From: a phage
Length of the DNA stretch: 64,000 bases
Direction: 5' to 3' (one strand)
Sequence record: PX104379.1
In this document: positions 2,927 to 47,716 of the stretch, one piece after another
Position numbering within the stretch: the stretch's first letter is position 1
Layout of the letters: every line of letters begins with the position of its first letter
The notes under the pieces: generated by a model
Told to the model about the DNA's origin: nothing
Databases searched by the model: none
The model's input: the letters and a program-made list of their open reading frames with translations, nothing else
Position numbers and translations under genes: made by a program

Positions 2927-3261
2927 TTCATAATCACCAGATAAGCAGATTTAGCAGTTTCAACACGATAAATTTCATGACGAAGTTTAGTTATACTTTT
3001 AATAACAGAACTAATTATATTCTGTCCGTCTTTAAAGCGGTTTTTCTTATCAATAAAAATTGCGCCAACCATCTTTTTGTGAAGCTCAACTGGATACTTC
3101 GTCACAATAATAGCATCATATACAGAAGGATGAATACTATTTACTAGAGTGTCATTCATTAAAGTTATTCTAATGAACTGTGCTGTTTCAGAGTCAAGCG
3201 CTCTATGATCGCCAGTATCATTTTCAAGACAATTATCAATTATATCAGTTAAATTCATCAT
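2923..3261 (-). CDS. hypothetical protein, 112 aa
   Basis: ORF track; overlapping stop/start with neighbours. Confidence 0.55.
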   Translation of the reverse strand: MMNLTDIIDNCLENDTGDHRALDSETAQFIRITLMNDTLVNSIHPSVYDAIIVTKYPVELHKKMVGAIFIDKKNRFKDGQNIISSVIKSITKLRHEIYRVETAKSAYLVIMK

Positions 3262-3593: not shown

Positions 3594-3834
3594 AGCGAAT
3601 GTCGCCTTTGATAACTAACTCAGCATCAAGACCGAATACGACAATGATATGCGCGGAACCTGGATACAGCGTAATGGCAACAGAATCCACCTGGTCTGGA
3701 AGCAAAGTGTTTAATACATGAGTCACTTGAGCATGGATTCGAAGTTCGGCTGCGTTATCAAGCTTTTCAAACATATTATTAGCGATAATTTGGCTAAACA
3801 CTACTTCTACGATTTTAGAGTAAGTCGGAAACAT
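3559..3834 (-). CDS. hypothetical protein, 91 aa
   Basis: ORF track. Confidence 0.5.
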   Translation of the reverse strand: MFPTYSKIVEVVFSQIIANNMFEKLDNAAELRIHAQVTHVLNTLLPDQVDSVAITLYPGSAHIIVVFGLDAELVIKGDIRFESQTAEFKAI

Positions 3835-3836
3835 AT

Positions 3837-4037
3837 TTACCTCGCATAATTTTCTTCAAGCCAATCAATAACATCCAACACATTATCAAAAGTTGAACCA
3901 TCTACTCTGTCTTCTGTTTCATAATCAAGAACATCTAAGCCTACTCTTCCATCAACAATAGGCCATAAACAAAATAGATATTTCTTTTCTTTTTCAATTT
4001 TATCACAAAGACGATAAATCTTTTCTATGTTATTCAT
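3837..4037 (-). CDS. hypothetical protein, 66 aa
   Basis: ORF track. Confidence 0.5.
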   Translation of the reverse strand: MNNIEKIYRLCDKIEKEKKYLFCLWPIVDGRVGLDVLDYETEDRVDGSTFDNVLDVIDWLEENYAR

Positions 4038-4226
4038 AAGTTTTCCATGGTAAAGGCAGTTTAGTTTTCTTTACTGTTAGTTCAACATCAGGATTCTTTT
4101 CTCTTAATTTAAGGCATTCCTCCCAAGCTCTGATTTCACTAGTGAATACACAAAATTGCCCATTACTAGTACCGACTAAACCACTATTTACAATAATAAT
4201 AGCCCAAGTTTCATGGTGCAAAGCCA

Positions 4227-4227: not shown

Positions 4228-5430
<1,203 letters not shown>

Positions 5431-5434
<4 letters not shown>

Positions 5435-5661
5435 TTATTTTTCTCAACCAATGATTGAATATAATCATGCAGGTCTTTAGATGCTTTGCCCCACTTATTT
5501 TGATATTCATTTTTGAGATTAGCACGTGATTGAGCTAATAAAACATCATTAGTTGGAGGTAAAGATTCTAATCGTTGAATCTGTCGTCCATAAATCATTG
5601 CAGCCATCTCGGATTCATAAATCAGTCCTTTGAGATGTTCAAATTGATGCCATGAAATCAT
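5431..5661 (-). CDS. hypothetical protein, 76 aa
   Basis: ORF track. Confidence 0.5.
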
Positions 5662-5957
5662 TTACATTTATCCTCTTTTAACTCTTGACGATAATAACAT
5701 ATCATAGTTTTCTGGTCATGTACATATCGTTTTACATCATTAAGCCAAATACGAAATTCCTGAGAATCTTCAAATGGCATACCGACCCAAGCTTTACCAT
5801 CGATAACTTTAACTTGCCAAGATAGTTTAGCTTCGTCATATGACTTTATTTGTACAGGCCAATTAGGATGAACTGTTTCTTTCTTTACTTCTAGAGGCTT
5901 TGTCGAACAACCAACTAGAAGACCAATAGATAATATTACTGCTGATAGTTTAATCAT
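5658..5957 (-). CDS. putative lipoprotein, 99 aa
   Basis: N-terminal signal with lipobox-like LLVGC. Confidence 0.55.
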   Translation of the reverse strand: MIKLSAVILSIGLLVGCSTKPLEVKKETVHPNWPVQIKSYDEAKLSWQVKVIDGKAWVGMPFEDSQEFRIWLNDVKRYVHDQKTMICYYRQELKEDKCK

Positions 5958-40539: not shown

Positions 40540-40580
40540 TTAATTATACCACATCCTTGTGGTAAAGTAAACTACTGGCT
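40540..40580 (-). promoter_or_regulatory. T4 early-type promoter overlapping the gene 39 stop
   Basis: Plus strand aattatacc ... 16 nt ... gtaaac. Confidence 0.4.
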
Positions 40581-42392
40581 CATCCATTCTTTACGAAGAT
40601 CAGCATTATCTCCCATGAGCATTTCAAAAAGCTCTTTCCAGTTCTCAGGAAGTTTAACAACATCATATACCGGATTTTGAATCATCTCACGATATTCAGA
40701 TTTTTCCAAAGAGCCAAGTCCCTTAATATAACGGATGCTATGTTTAGGTAGAGCATCTTTAGCACTCTCATATTCAGCGACTGTATAAAACCATTCTTGT
40801 TTTTTACCGACCTGAGCGATGATTACAGGAGTTTTGACAAAGCGAATTCGTCCTTGCTCAAACAATTCTGGCCAATTACTAAAAAACCCGAGCAGAGAAG
40901 GATAAATGCTTCCTAAACCATCATGGTCAGCATCGGTCATAATAGCAATATTATGATAATTCAAGTTTTCAGCTTTTTCACCAAGAACTAATCCAGTGAT
41001 TGCGCAAATATCAAACAGTTCTTTGTTTTTAAGCATATCAGCATATGACATACCCCAACTGTTGAGAACTTTACCACGCAATGGATAACCACCATGAAGT
41101 TCTTTATCACGAACATCAATAAGATATCCGATAGCAGAATCACCCTCAGTCAAGAAAAGAGTAGTATCAGCATCTTTACCACAAAGATTCGCTTTGATAT
41201 GTTTATGAACCTTAGCTTTAGAAGCCTTTTTAGCTGCTTTAGTTTCTGCTGCTTTTTCTGCTGCCAATTTACGGGCCAAAGCAGCTTCAATAATCGGCAT
41301 TAAAATTGCTTCATTATTTAGAATAGCGCGTGAAATCTTTTTAGCATCAAGTTGAATATGACTACGAATTTCACCAAAAGGAGAAGTAAGTCGTTCTTTA
41401 GTTTGAGAATCAAATCGCATGTTTTTCATATCACGGACAAACATAACGATAGTCAAACATTCTTTAACGCGTGCTTTAGTTACATCAATTTTGAACTTAC
41501 GTTTGATTTGTGGAATAAGGTCTTCACAAATATCATCCATAACACAGTCAATGTGATGGCCACCATTCTTAGTGTGAATGTTATTCACATAAGTTAATTG
41601 GCGAAATCCATCCGGTGAACGACCAACCGCAATAGAACAATTTTCTTGTTCTTGAACAATAGCATGTTCATCATACTGTCGTGCATATTTCTTAAAATTG
41701 CCCTGAACCTTTTTACCATTAAAGGTAAATTGAATATCAGGATAAACAACAGCAAGTGTCTGGAGACGATCTAGTGTAATGTCAAGATAAACTTGGGACA
41801 GCTCATTAGTTTCAAATGACATAAAATCTGGAATGAAAGTAACACGAGTTCCTTTCCATTTTCCAGGAATAGTTTCCCAGGATTTATTTTCCATGCCATT
41901 TGAACAACGAACTACAATATTATTTTGACCATCGCCAGTTTCACCGACAAACATCACAGAAAAAATGTTAGTTAAACTAGAACCAACACCATTCATACCA
42001 CCGGTGACGCGTTCTTTATCATCACCGAAGTTACCACCTGCTTTTGGAATAGTCCAAGCAGCAACTGGACCAGGAATTTCTTCACCGGTAGGTGTTTTAA
42101 CCATCGCTTGTGGAATACCGCGACCGTTATCTTCAACTGTTACCTGATTATTTTTAATGGTAACATTAATTTTATTCGCGAATTTAAACTTAGTACGAAT
42201 ACCTTCATCGACTGAGTTATCGATAATTTCATCAATAAGCTTAACAAGACCAGGTACATACTGAACACTTTCCCATTTACCAAACAGAAAGCGCTCATGC
42301 ATTTCATTAGCAGAAGAGCCAATGTACATGCCACTACGCTTTTTGATATGTTCAATATCGCTCAGAATTTTAATTTCATTCTTAATCATCAC
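40572..42392 (-). CDS. 39: DNA topoisomerase II large subunit gp39 (GyrB-like), unsplit, 606 aa
   Basis: Single contiguous 606 aa ORF with ATPase and Toprim regions; no separate gene 60. Confidence 0.9.
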   Translation of the reverse strand: MMIKNEIKILSDIEHIKKRSGMYIGSSANEMHERFLFGKWESVQYVPGLVKLIDEIIDNSVDEGIRTKFKFANKINVTIKNNQVTVEDNGRGIPQAMVKTPTGEEIPGPVAAWTIPKAGGNFGDDKERVTGGMNGVGSSLTNIFSVMFVGETGDGQNNIVVRCSNGMENKSWETIPGKWKGTRVTFIPDFMSFETNELSQVYLDITLDRLQTLAVVYPDIQFTFNGKKVQGNFKKYARQYDEHAIVQEQENCSIAVGRSPDGFRQLTYVNNIHTKNGGHHIDCVMDDICEDLIPQIKRKFKIDVTKARVKECLTIVMFVRDMKNMRFDSQTKERLTSPFGEIRSHIQLDAKKISRAILNNEAILMPIIEAALARKLAAEKAAETKAAKKASKAKVHKHIKANLCGKDADTTLFLTEGDSAIGYLIDVRDKELHGGYPLRGKVLNSWGMSYADMLKNKELFDICAITGLVLGEKAENLNYHNIAIMTDADHDGLGSIYPSLLGFFSNWPELFEQGRIRFVKTPVIIAQVGKKQEWFYTVAEYESAKDALPKHSIRYIKGLGSLEKSEYREMIQNPVYDVVKLPENWKELFEMLMGDNADLRKEWMSQ

Positions 42393-43925: not shown

Positions 43926-44207
43926 TTAATTGAACAGTGGAGCGATGCGTTTCAGAAGAGTAGCAGCACCTTTAGCGAATTTTACATCATGAAAAACAGT
44001 TTCTTCTTCCGTTATAACACGAGCTTTAATGTTTTCACAATCCCAATTTTTGCGAACAATCTTCAAAAGCTGCAGTAAATCTTTACATTCAGCAATATCG
44101 ATAACACATCCACGAGAATCTTCCATTATCGCACGATAACCATAAGCCATACCGTAATCGTTGAAAGATTGCTCGATGATAATTAAGTTTTCCATTTTAT
44201 TCTCCAA
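43926..44207 (-). CDS. hypothetical protein, 93 aa
   Basis: ORF track. Confidence 0.55.
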   Translation of the reverse strand: MENKMENLIIIEQSFNDYGMAYGYRAIMEDSRGCVIDIAECKDLLQLLKIVRKNWDCENIKARVITEEETVFHDVKFAKGAATLLKRIAPLFN

Positions 44208-44302
44208 GTTGTTTTCTGTATCAGTAGTTGATATTGATATAGTACCATAATCAACTACTGATGTATATAGTTTTATGAAAAAATTTTAAACTTTATGCAA
44301 AT

Positions 44303-44722
44303 TTATGCTAAAGCTGCTTCGCACCATTTTTTAATTTGGAATTCAGGAACTACCATGAACTGGCCTGCAAAAACAATATTGTAGAGCTTGACGCCATCTT
44401 CTACCCAACGGTCCGAAATAAAACCAGCGACTTGATTCGTTGTCCATGGAGTTCCATCTGTTGCCGCCGCAATTGTGAATTTATGGTCTTTTACAACTAA
44501 AACTGAAGAACAAAGTTTCCATTTAAATGCGCTTTCTTCTGGCTCAATGAACTGACTTGAGACATAACCAATGTTACCATCAGCGTCACGAACTTTAACC
44601 TCGTTACGACCAAAAACTGGATCACTTACAGAAAGAACTTCAACCAGCTTTCCTGCAACTTTAGAACGAGAAGCAACAGATACATATACGTAATCACCAG
44701 TAGAGAGATTTACAATATTCAT
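44303..44722 (-). CDS. hypothetical protein, 139 aa; member 1 of a tandem paralog triplet
   Basis: Shares C-terminal motif D(R/Q)W(V/I)EDG(V/K)xL(Y/L)N(I/V)V..G..xVV with the next two ORFs. Confidence 0.6.
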   Translation of the reverse strand: MNIVNLSTGDYVYVSVASRSKVAGKLVEVLSVSDPVFGRNEVKVRDADGNIGYVSSQFIEPEESAFKWKLCSSVLVVKDHKFTIAAATDGTPWTTNQVAGFISDRWVEDGVKLYNIVFAGQFMVVPEFQIKKWCEAALA

Positions 44723-44731
44723 AATAATTCC

Positions 44732-45208
44732 TTAAGCTTTACGAGGAGAAGCATAACGAGTGATTTCAGATTCTTCAACAACCCGGAAGTCACCTAAGAA
44801 TACGATATTGTATAGCTTTTTACCGTCTTCAATCCATTGGTCTGTGATGAAGCCACACATCCTATCAGTTTTACTTGGACCAGCGAAATCATCAATATAA
44901 TCGAATTCTTCATCAGTTACAAATTCAACGCCTTTACACAACGCCCATTTAAATTGTGCATTAGACTCAGTGGATTCAACTTCTTCAACAGAAGCAAAAT
45001 GAGAGCTAACACGAGTTTCCAGAAATTTAGGACTTACGTAAGCGTACTGAGTTTCAGTTTTTCCAGAACTAGGAATGATTCGAACTTTAACTTCTTTAAC
45101 ACGACCAGTACCATTAGTACGAAGTCCTACCACTTCAACTAGACGACCTGCAGCTTTAGAACGAGATGCAGATGATACACGCTTAATTTCACCAATATTA
45201 ATAATCAT
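44732..45208 (-). CDS. hypothetical protein, 158 aa; member 2 of a tandem paralog triplet
   Basis: Conserved motif GFITDQWIEDGKKLYNIVFLGDFRVVEE. Confidence 0.6.
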   Translation of the reverse strand: MIINIGEIKRVSSASRSKAAGRLVEVVGLRTNGTGRVKEVKVRIIPSSGKTETQYAYVSPKFLETRVSSHFASVEEVESTESNAQFKWALCKGVEFVTDEEFDYIDDFAGPSKTDRMCGFITDQWIEDGKKLYNIVFLGDFRVVEESEITRYASPRKA

Positions 45209-45249
45209 AGTTATCTCTCACTTGTTAAAAAGATTTTATACTCCACGGG

Positions 45250-45290
45250 ACCATTATACTCTGGTCCCAAGAGTTTGTAAACTAGCTTAC
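45250..45290 (-). promoter_or_regulatory. T4 early-type promoter
   Basis: Plus strand ccattatactc ... 16 nt ... tgtaaac. Confidence 0.4.
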
Positions 45291-45719
45291 ACGAACATTA
45301 ATCACTGCGCTGCGAGGAACTACAGAGTACTCTCCAGCATGAACTACGTTCAGAAGTTCAACACCATCTTCAATCCACTGATCAGTCACCCATCCACCCA
45401 CAGGATTCGCGAATGGACGACGAATATAAACTGCCTTACACAGCAGATCAGTTGGATCTTCAGGTTTTTCAATTTCTGTCAATAGACTAAAATCTTTTTC
45501 ATAAATAATAAGCGGTGATACCATTCCATAATAGTTTCTAATTTCAATATACATCATACCGATAAGAATTCCGCTATTAACACTAATAACAGTAAAAGGA
45601 TATCCGCCAGTTAAACCAAGAAGTTCACAAAACTTATTATGAGCTGTATTAGACAGTACCGAAAAATTCTTAATTTCATCAAATTTTTTCAATTGATAAA
45701 CAGCATTATTTTTAATCAT
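45282..45719 (-). CDS. hypothetical protein, 145 aa; member 3 of a tandem paralog triplet
   Basis: Conserved motif GGWVTDQWIEDGVELLNVVHAGEYSVVPR. Confidence 0.6.
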   Translation of the reverse strand: MIKNNAVYQLKKFDEIKNFSVLSNTAHNKFCELLGLTGGYPFTVISVNSGILIGMMYIEIRNYYGMVSPLIIYEKDFSLLTEIEKPEDPTDLLCKAVYIRRPFANPVGGWVTDQWIEDGVELLNVVHAGEYSVVPRSAVINVRVS

Positions 45720-46305: not shown

Positions 46306-46989
46306 TTATCGTTTTGTTGGAAGAGACAGAGGATCGCATTCTTCCTCTGATGGAGCGTCTTCAAGACCCATAGCATAGCGCAAAGCATACTTCATCATCA
46401 GGATGTCTTTCGCACAGTCATGAATGGAATCATGCGCAACGAATCCATTTAAAGTTCCCTTTGGAAGAGGACACGTGGTCATATCACGAACAAGTAGAAG
46501 TGCTTCAATTCTAGTACGAATGTCGCGTTGATTCCAGAATTTACATGGTTCTAACTTAAATGTGTCAAGCTCATTCTCAGAAACGCCGTTAAGACGTTGA
46601 ATATCGCGAATGAGATCGACTAAAATTGGAAAATCAAACGACATTCCACGGCACCAGCCTTGAGATTTCCAAGGATCGATATTATGCGCATTGATGTAAT
46701 CATTAAATTTTGCAATACCATCGATAGTGCTTACATCTTCATCTGATGGTGCAATATTTTTTCTAGCTTCAGGTGATTGATTTTTCCACCATTCGATAGT
46801 GCTTTTAGTAAAAAGACGGTGTCCTTTTTGACTTTTTAAGTCAAATTTAATTTTAATGCCACGTGAAACTAATTCATCAAATGTTTCAACGACTTCTGGA
46901 TTAGGGTCAAAAGCAATTACAGCCAAATCAATAACAGCTGCTTTTTCACCGCTTCCCATTGTTTCAAAATCTATAATAAAATCAAACAT
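46306..46989 (-). CDS. dexA: exonuclease A (DEDD 3'-5' exonuclease), 227 aa
   Basis: 227 aa as T4 DexA; N-terminal exonuclease motif FDFIIDFETMG. Confidence 0.85.
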   Translation of the reverse strand: MFDFIIDFETMGSGEKAAVIDLAVIAFDPNPEVVETFDELVSRGIKIKFDLKSQKGHRLFTKSTIEWWKNQSPEARKNIAPSDEDVSTIDGIAKFNDYINAHNIDPWKSQGWCRGMSFDFPILVDLIRDIQRLNGVSENELDTFKLEPCKFWNQRDIRTRIEALLLVRDMTTCPLPKGTLNGFVAHDSIHDCAKDILMMKYALRYAMGLEDAPSEEECDPLSLPTKR

Positions 46990-47246
46990 TAAACTTTCCT
47001 CGCTAAATCGCGAATTTGGCCTACAGTATAGTCTTGAATATAAACTTTATTAATAGGCTCATCAATAAATTTTGCCATAGATTCAATATCTTTTTGTATC
47101 TCTTTAAGACTGTATACTATCTTTGAAGCTTTTTCGCGAATAGTAATATTTTCAGGACCTGGATTTTCTTCAATGACAGCTTTAACATTTGTCATAAGAG
47201 ATTTAAACTGGTACCAACTCAACTCAATCATTAATAATCGCCTCAT
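46989..47246 (-). CDS. hypothetical protein, 85 aa
   Basis: ORF track; similar in size and N-terminus to the next ORF. Confidence 0.55.
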   Translation of the reverse strand: MRRLLMIELSWYQFKSLMTNVKAVIEENPGPENITIREKASKIVYSLKEIQKDIESMAKFIDEPINKVYIQDYTVGQIRDLARKV

Positions 47247-47484
47247 AAAGATAGCTAATTTCGCCTAAAACGTAATCATTGATTGTAACAGTTTTCACTT
47301 CACCGCAAAAGAATTCTAACGCAATTAAATCTCGTTCAATTTCTTCTAATTGAAGCATCAACTTATTAGATTCAATTTTTACAGTTTCACGATTTTTACC
47401 ATGAGCAATTTCATAAATTTCGCTCACTTTATCTTGAAGCAGATAAAACTGATCTTTAGTTATTTCCACGAATAGCTTCCTCAA
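47224..47484 (-). CDS. hypothetical protein, 86 aa
   Basis: ORF track. Confidence 0.55.
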   Translation of the reverse strand: MRKLFVEITKDQFYLLQDKVSEIYEIAHGKNRETVKIESNKLMLQLEEIERDLIALEFFCGEVKTVTINDYVLGEISYLYEAIIND

Positions 47485-47716
47485 ATTTAATTAGTAATTT
47501 ACAGACACTTTCATCTAGTGTAATTACCGTATCTGTATTACTGTGATATGATTGTTTTTCAATTCGTTTAATTGCTAATATAGTATCACTTATAAGATAA
47601 AGCTTATGAAGGAGCTCAGCTCCTGTTACCATAACATCGAGATTATCTTGCTTATTAGTATGCTTCCTTATACCATCTATTAGACGATTTAAATATTTTG
47701 AATTGATGTTAATCAT
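47456..47716 (-). CDS. hypothetical protein, 86 aa
   Basis: ORF track. Confidence 0.55.
   Translation of the reverse strand: MININSKYLNRLIDGIRKHTNKQDNLDVMVTGAELLHKLYLISDTILAIKRIEKQSYHSNTDTVITLDESVCKLLIKFEEAIRGNN

Follow-up and report, generated by a model that had tools for sequence, protein, structure and literature searches.

Why does a T4-type phage carry, side by side in its early region, three small genes whose products end in nearly the same block of residues? The locus lies in a stretch of 64,000 nucleotides (nt) of the phage sequence record PX104379.1 (hereafter the window, to whose positions all coordinates refer) and consists of three adjacent open reading frames (ORFs) on the minus strand, which encode proteins of 139, 158 and 145 amino acids (aa) at 44303..44722, 44732..45208 and 45282..45719, respectively. 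An initial annotation, made from the sequence alone, had placed and measured these ORFs exactly and described them as tandem paralogues of unknown function with a common C-terminal motif. Our data reveal that the three genes are the MotB-like, MotB and MotB.1 early genes of T4-type phages, so that the observation was correct and the family already described. The triplet is probably best understood as the motB-family cluster of Tequatrovirus, in which a MotB with a DNA-coating N-terminal domain and a contact-making C-terminal domain would be accompanied by sub-functionalised copies.

The similarity between the three proteins is far beyond chance expectation. The C-terminal motif is found in each of them (DRWVEDGVKLYNIVFAGQFMVVP, DQWIEDGKKLYNIVFLGDFRVVE, DQWIEDGVELLNVVHAGEYSVVP), and pairwise BLASTP comparisons returned E = 2e-29 for the 139- and 158-aa proteins (40% identity over the full length), E = 8e-13 for the 158- and 145-aa proteins, and E = 2e-11 for the 139- and 145-aa proteins (53% identity over 32 C-terminal residues). 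Smith-Waterman scores compared with 2000 shuffles gave z = 40, 19 and 18 for the three pairs, and the observed score was reached by none of the shuffles. A hidden Markov model (HMM) of the block, run against the six-frame translation of the whole window, recovered exactly three copies (E about 1e-25) and no further one, the next-best match having an E-value of about 0.5. A chance motif, or ORFs that are not genuine genes, would have the small size of the ORFs in its favour and nothing else; against it stand the shuffling statistics, scores above the Pfam gathering cutoff for all three proteins, hundreds of conserved homologues in phage genomes, purifying selection on the three genes and confident AlphaFold2 models, and this explanation is already refuted.

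The similarity is, however, not of the same extent in all pairs. The N-terminal halves of the 139- and 158-aa proteins are related on their own (Smith-Waterman z = 14) and have the pattern ASRSKxAGxLVEV in common; the initial annotation had reported it with one more residue, a leading serine, which is a valine in the 139-aa protein. The N-terminal half of the 145-aa protein showed no relation to the other two (pairwise z = 0-1.7, HHalign probability 0.1%). An end-to-end BLASTP alignment of the full proteins might be taken to indicate N-domain homology of MotB and MotB.1, but with z = 1.7 for the halves and 0.1% for the profiles this was rejected at the sequence level. The C-terminal profiles of the MotB-type and MotB.1 proteins, on the other hand, match over 38 columns with an HHalign probability of 99% and E = 6e-18. 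The common C-terminal domain comprises about 55-75 residues: residues 66-139 of the 139-aa protein (44306..44527, minus strand), residues 85-158 of MotB (44735..44956, minus strand), the copy that has the profile-profile match to the MotB.1 domain, and residues 88-145 of MotB.1 (45285..45458, minus strand), the stretch with the highest conservation in the MotB.1 family. Its 38-residue core reads G(F/W)(I/V)(S/T)D(Q/R)W(V/I)EDG..L.N(I/V)V..G....VV.

To which family do these proteins belong? All three exceed the curated gathering threshold of 25 bits by which we defined membership in the Pfam family PF17613 (motB, modifier of transcription), with 72.1 bits for the 139-aa protein, 147.1 bits for the 158-aa protein, which matches the model end to end, and 32.7 bits for the 145-aa protein, which matches only in its C-terminal part (model positions 118-153). 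In PHROGs, the 139- and 158-aa proteins fall into phrog_1671 (MotB-like transcriptional regulator) and the 145-aa protein into phrog_2333 (E = 9e-68). The closest phage records list the 158-aa gene as 'modifier of transcription MotB', and the 145-aa gene is identified as the motB.1 orthologue also by its synteny with T4 motB.1. The 139-aa protein, a second MotB-type paralogue by Pfam and by BLASTP against MotB, is 100% identical to the 'MotB-like transcriptional regulator' proteins of phages RB68 and PP01, and the corresponding gene of RB27 bears the same label in RefSeq; a copy with at least 80% identity occurs in about 208 of the 774 phage records with any match (~27%). The two-domain layout of MotB, a KOW-like N-terminal domain with SRSKxAG followed by the C-domain, is present in the 139- and 158-aa proteins and absent from the 145-aa protein, which represents the MotB.1 branch.

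The paralogy itself is not new. Patterson-West et al. 2021 (PMC7827196) recognized that MotB and MotB.1 have the C-terminal domain in common while their N-terminal domains differ, that a duplication probably produced one of motB and motB.1 from the other, and that extra copies exist in several phages, including RB69. A family with a Pfam entry, a MotB-like label in RefSeq and a published paralogy can hardly be called one of unknown function, and in view of the Pfam and PHROG identities, the synteny and annotation and the published MotB/MotB.1 relationship, the triplet is a correct rediscovery of a known family. Its significance as such is small. The comparison with the cef/motB region of T4, which the initial annotation had proposed, was what identified the family, and it also confirmed, together with the pairwise and profile similarities, that these are tandem paralogues in an early region of T-even type. 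New are a SH3/Tudor-like model of the C-domain, the modularity of the family, a mosaic cassette that is under purifying selection, and an artefact in the T4 MotB.1 record.

The predicted fold of the C-domain differs from what had been proposed. AlphaFold2 models built from family alignments consist of two small beta-barrels both in the 139-aa protein (predicted local distance difference test score, pLDDT, 87.5; predicted template modelling score, pTM, 0.75) and in the 145-aa protein (pLDDT 82.4, pTM 0.54). In the model of the latter, strands 7-10, 42-49, 55-61, 67-73 and 80-83 and a helix 24-37 form a bent anti-parallel N-terminal beta-sheet, which is followed by a linker and the C-domain; with its MotB.1 orthology the protein thus fits the LSm-like family, a label that is taken from the literature. 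In the modelled C-domain, a 3-10 turn separates the last two of five strands, and strands 3 and 4 are not connected by a helix. Owing to this strand order, the turn and the missing helix, it models as a SH3/Tudor-like small beta-barrel and not as the OB fold proposed earlier, and neither OB connectivity nor OB-fold proteins as nearest structural neighbours were found. Its resemblance to the Tudor or 'Royal family' is one of predicted fold only, and we do not file it as a Tudor member: no Tudor, PWWP, chromo or Agenet family of Pfam matched the isolated C-domains at E <= 10, and there is no sequence-profile match of the Tudor kind and no evidence of its aromatic cage. In the same search the C-domains matched motB only, and the isolated N-domains additionally gave weak matches to SH3_3 (E = 0.019, one N-domain) and XtrA. 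A search by sequence for relatives of solved structure found none, the sole match being a chance one to bL9 (E = 1.2). Small barrels match each other promiscuously. A reading of 'W-x-EDG-..-Y' as a Tudor-like aromatic cage was dropped, because the motif lies on the hairpin of strands 2 and 3 in the models, away from the site of the SMN-type Tudor signature. The N-terminal heads would be of two kinds, a KOW/SH3-like barrel with SRSKxAG in MotB and the 139-aa copy, and another barrel, LSm-like according to the literature, in MotB.1.

What MotB does is known from work on T4. T4 MotB is an abundant early protein that binds DNA non-specifically (PMC6070864, PMC7827196); it is toxic to E. coli, co-purifies with DNA and H-NS/StpA and has a 2-fold effect on burst size (PMC6070864), and it alters H-NS footprints, while H-NS-repressed genes go up (PMC7827196). 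The initial annotation's notion of a host-takeover factor therefore fits MotB well, given its toxicity, its DNA binding, its action on H-NS footprints and the doubled burst. In this phage the charge is unevenly distributed over the protein: the net charge of the 158-aa MotB is +8 in the N-domain, -4 in an acidic and variable linker and -5 in the C-domain. Among MotB-type family members the means are +4.1 for the N-domain and -1.2 for the C-domain, and the C-domain of the MotB.1 family is always between -2 and -5. The basic N-domain is indirect support for the 158-aa protein as a DNA binder, whereas a basic excess is completely lacking from the 139- and 145-aa proteins.

The constraint on the two halves is likewise unequal. 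Mean pairwise identity reaches 0.74-0.82 in the C-domain core, compared to 0.58 and 0.44 in the N-domains and 0.39 in the linker; within the MotB.1 family the values are 0.82 for the C-domain and 0.44 for the N-module. Pairwise Nei-Gojobori estimates of the ratio of nonsynonymous to synonymous divergence (dN/dS) are 0.14, 0.26 and 0.24 for the three whole genes, 0.09-0.19 for the C-terminal parts, and 0.41-0.62 for the N-terminal parts of MotB and MotB.1. The three genes are under purifying selection, and the C-terminal block is their most conserved part; these estimates show no positive selection, with no domain above 0.62.

From the distribution of charge and constraint we infer that the non-specific DNA binding of MotB resides mainly in its basic KOW-like N-domain, while the C-domain, invariant and non-basic, is more likely to serve in self-association or in a conserved protein contact. 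MotB, presumably made from a strong early promoter of its own, would coat DNA non-specifically through the N-domain and thereby remodel H-NS-bound host (and phage) DNA, to the benefit of burst size. The conserved C-domain would be a common protein-interaction or self-association module, which might give MotB the multivalency required for DNA compaction and through which the paralogues could share a partner. DNA compaction is reportedly the subject of a 2021 study by Son et al. in NAR, to judge from its title. The two extra copies would then be sub-functionalised variants, one with an uncharged KOW-like head (139 aa) and one with a LSm-like, possibly RNA-directed head (MotB.1). For work on T4 host takeover this may be of some use, since a non-basic C-domain of SH3/Tudor type moves the likely DNA binding to the MotB N-domain and hints at a role of the C-domain in protein contacts.

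Alternatively, the three proteins could be redundant non-specific DNA binders, in which the C-domain, proposed in 2021 to be a cold-shock-like OB fold, binds DNA and the array raises the dose of a nucleoid-coating protein. The OB-fold prediction for the MotB C-domain was based on HHpred, and its authors state that either MotB domain could bind DNA (PMC7827196). The C-domain is, moreover, the only part that all three proteins have in common. In MotB of the T4 type it is mildly basic (+3), and some of its top structural neighbours touch nucleic acids, among them a PWWP domain with single-stranded DNA and MTF2 with DNA. The fold in our models and the absence of basic excess in the C-domains of the window point the other way, and we consider this explanation rather unlikely.

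The same charge also weighs against our preferred assignment of DNA binding to the N-domain and of contacts to the C-domain, as do several further points. Net charge is the only basis on which DNA binding was assigned to the N-domain, and barrels of the Tudor/PWWP type can bind nucleic acids. AlphaFold3 gave no confident homo-oligomers of MotB.1, and T4 motB.1 knock-outs have no laboratory phenotype (Kim et al. 2025, PMC12152347). The T4 transcriptome is barely changed by a knock-down of motB (PMC7827196, PMC6070864). Our literature search found no published experiment on the 139-aa copy or on the proteins of this phage.

A more specific version of the contact hypothesis would have the C-domain act as a docking or oligomerisation module, through which MotB, the 139-aa protein and MotB.1 form homo- or hetero-oligomers or bind one conserved partner. 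This is a tentative proposal, and we would not expect it to hold in this form. It would account, though, for a nearly invariant C-domain next to heads that phages have swapped. If true, the cluster would encode a combinatorial nucleoid-remodelling complex, with interchangeable N-terminal heads (basic KOW-like, uncharged KOW-like, or one to three LSm-like modules) that select DNA, RNA or other targets.

The exchange of heads is evident from the wider family. A profile of the three C-domains, searched against 1.84 billion cluster representatives, retrieved only 28 proteins, 26 of which are small (101-251 aa) and carry the domain at the C-terminus; of the two marginal matches that remain, one is a deletion remnant of 43 aa and the other a protein of 2612 aa (E about 1e-3). 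In the distant members the C-domain is joined to a KOW-like N-domain, in some cases with a canonical KOW signature; those with names come from Klebsiella T4-like phages, and a viral structure library likewise returned proteins of T4-like phages only. The family is thus modular and confined to T4-like phages. In the MotB.1 branch the C-domain is preceded by one, two or three copies of the N-module or by a KOW-type head, and three proteins (P0104, P0036 and P0034) are chimeras of a MotB-type N-domain and a C-domain of the 139-aa type, as is expected from recombination between tandem copies. In the 43-aa metagenomic protein (P0279), the start of MotB.2 (MKIYRVESSFS) is fused to the C-terminal 29 residues of MotB.1; this deletion remnant shows that in some phages internal deletions erode the cluster as well.

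How has the cassette come to its present composition? Compared to T4, the proteins encoded by the flanking genes cef, dexA, dda and 39 (gp39) are 96-100% identical, in contrast to 47% for MotB, 64% for MotB.2 and 78% for MotB.1. Compared to RB69 the relation is reversed: the flanks reach only 67-79%, MotB 82% and the 139-aa copy 87%, and the synonymous divergence (dS) of MotB and the 139-aa copy is 0.28-0.65, versus 2.8 for dexA. RB69-like MotB and 139-aa genes of low dS within T4-like flanks indicate that the cassette was exchanged horizontally between lineages. T4 lacks the 139-aa gene and the 89-aa ORF next to it, where a deletion of ~200 nt has left an 18-aa remnant of the latter (window 43926-44722 versus T4 stretch 2984-3153). 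Just past its stop codon, T4 motB is followed by a sequence 98% identical to the one that follows the stop codon of the 139-aa gene in the window, and upstream of motB the 73-nt spacer agrees with T4 at every position (100% identity). Because the flanks match on both sides, the single motB of T4 occupies a slot that holds two genes in the window. A simple fusion of two tandem copies as the origin of T4 motB agrees with the flanks but was not adopted, since the distances of the T4 C-domain to the two copies of the window are about equal. A mosaic cassette with one or two MotB-type genes between identical flanks offers natural variants for tests of function.

Such variability invites the explanation that the array is a diversifying anti-defence locus, in which the paralogues act as decoys or inhibitors of variable host immunity proteins and owe their differences to an arms race. 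The region is early and non-essential; copy number varies, as the patchy occurrence of the 139-aa copy shows; N-terminal modules are swapped or multiplied one to three times, and chimeric genes occur. The low identity of MotB to its T4 counterpart within conserved flanks and the apparent exchange with RB69-like phages could be read in the same way. Selection, however, speaks a different language, with low gene-wide dN/dS and a nearly invariant C-terminal block, and an activity of MotB on DNA and H-NS is already documented. A literature search found no link between the motB family and any defence system. A PADLOC scan yielded no significant match (only a meaningless one to a methyltransferase, E = 0.027), which says little on this question because the library holds host defence proteins and not anti-defence proteins. 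The anti-defence role suggested by the initial annotation thus found no support, and we regard it as improbable. Its expectation that such arrays diversify holds in so far as the cassette is mosaic, variable in copy number and provided with swapped N-modules; it does not hold at the level of selection, which is purifying throughout and strongest in the C-terminal block.

Analyses of MotB.1 may be affected by discrepancies in the reference records. The T4 reference (NC_000866 = AF158101) contains one extra G within the W-I-E-D-G codons of motB.1 (positions 3792-4151 of the compared T4 stretch), which yields the annotated 119-aa, 13.8-kDa protein ending in DQWIGRWR; in the +1 frame, EDGVELLNVVHAGEYSVVPRSAVVAILN can still be read. 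The 509-nt stretch is matched over 508 nt, i.e. without the extra G, by thirteen T4 or T4-derived records that were deposited independently, as well as by RB55 and RB59, and a re-sequenced T4 (MT984581) encodes an intact MotB.1 of 143 aa. Judged by these records, the 119-aa T4 MotB.1 is a one-base artefact of the reference. As Kim et al. 2025 (PMC12152347) refer to NC_000866.4 and give 13.8 kDa for MotB.1, the protein that they expressed from a plasmid was probably without the final 24 residues of the conserved domain; other heterologous experiments designed from NC_000866 may likewise have used a MotB.1 without it. In the RB69 reference (NC_004928, stretch 5377-5873), two separate one-base insertions interrupt the region of motB.1 that encodes the C-domain and create the annotated 29-aa ORF RB69p012, whose product appears in Patterson-West et al. 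2021 (PMC7827196) as the 'category 3 peptide'. This interruption can be either a sequencing error or real decay.

The arrangement of the genes gives some indication of their expression. A plausible purine-rich Shine-Dalgarno sequence precedes each of the three. The gaps measure 9 nt from the motB stop codon to the start of the 139-aa gene, 73 nt from motB.1 to motB, and 10 nt from the motB.2 stop codon to the motB.1 start. The short gaps of 9 and 10 nt suggest that motB is co-transcribed with the 139-aa gene, and motB.1 with motB.2. Directly upstream of motB, in the spacer that is fully conserved with T4, lies a sigma-70-type (T4-early-like) promoter match, TTTACA-17-TATAAT (45253..45281, minus strand); with 11 of 12 positions matching, it outranks every other candidate of the 3.9-kb scan. 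The spacer (45209-45281) also folds as a stable hairpin that overlaps the promoter match (-24.4 kcal/mol, z = -4.8). A second structure was observed in the 107 nt that separate the 139-aa gene from the 89-aa ORF (44196-44302, minus strand): a perfect 13-bp stem (AUCAGUAGUUGAU...AUCAACUACUGAU; -23.6 kcal/mol, z = -4.3), which is 98% conserved in T4 and is followed by no U-tract.

The surroundings agree with the assignment. A DNA search places the window in Tequatrovirus, with Escherichia phage FriedrichZschokke as the best match (98.4% identity), and the neighbours of the triplet are a fused topoisomerase subunit gp39, goF, cef, dexA and dda. The gene order of the window is cef, 89-aa ORF, 139-aa gene, motB, motB.1, motB.2 (170 aa), dexA, the same as in FriedrichZschokke and RB27, and it also agrees with T4 (cef, motB, motB.1, motB.2, dexA) and RB69, so that the triplet sits where the MotB family is found in T-even phages, between cef and dexA in the early region. 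The 89-aa ORF (43926..44195, minus strand) belongs to phrog_3720, of unknown function, and is annotated as a 270-nt CDS in related phages. Transcription would proceed in the order motB.1, motB, 139-aa copy, with the cluster situated between dexA/motB.2 and cef in an early, non-essential region.

Two further features of the neighbourhood deserve mention. The large subunit of topoisomerase II (40572-42392, minus strand) is encoded by a single ORF of 606 aa, unlike the split genes 39 and 60 of T4 with their mobA insertion; the gene 60 arrangement is absent from the window, as in RB69 and most T4 relatives. Between dexA and dda, the dexA.1-like (85 aa) and dexA.2-like (86 aa) genes (46989-47484, minus strand) form a paralogous pair (Smith-Waterman z = 13.5, a score reached in 0 of 3000 shuffles), while a third, adjoining ORF of 86 aa (47456-47716), not present in T4, has no significant similarity to either.

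Among known systems, the MotB and MotB.1 genes of T4 and the RB69 locus are among the closest. The 158-aa gene is the positional orthologue of T4 motB, with the same flanks and the same conserved promoter spacer, but its product is far less similar to the T4 protein than to that of RB69, and the gene is an allele of RB69 type. The 139-aa protein has the two-domain layout of T4 MotB without its acidic linker and basic excess, and a counterpart of this copy does not exist in T4. The 145-aa gene is the positional orthologue of T4 motB.1; its product is 78% identical to the T4 reference protein over the part present there (the N-terminal part), about 83% identical to the 144-aa forms of MotB.1, and of full length where the reference protein is truncated by the one-base discrepancy. 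It also fits the description given by Kim et al. 2025 (PMC12152347), according to whom the N-domain of MotB.1 is a LSm-like barrel related to GoF and Frd.2: an N-terminal beta-barrel is joined to a MotB-like C-domain. The barrels of the 53BP1 tandem Tudor, the Spt5 KOW tandems, NusG KOW and PWWP domains show no relation to the C-domains at the sequence level, and the C-domain motif bears no apparent sign of an aromatic cage of the methyl-lysine type. In RB69, which Patterson-West et al. 2021 name as a phage with extra copies, the locus contains a MotB-like gene of 139 aa, a MotB of 151 aa, the 29-aa ORF and MotB.1, that is, three family members in the same order. This locus differs in its much more diverged flanking genes and in the location of motB.2, which lies on the opposite side of the cluster from that in the window.

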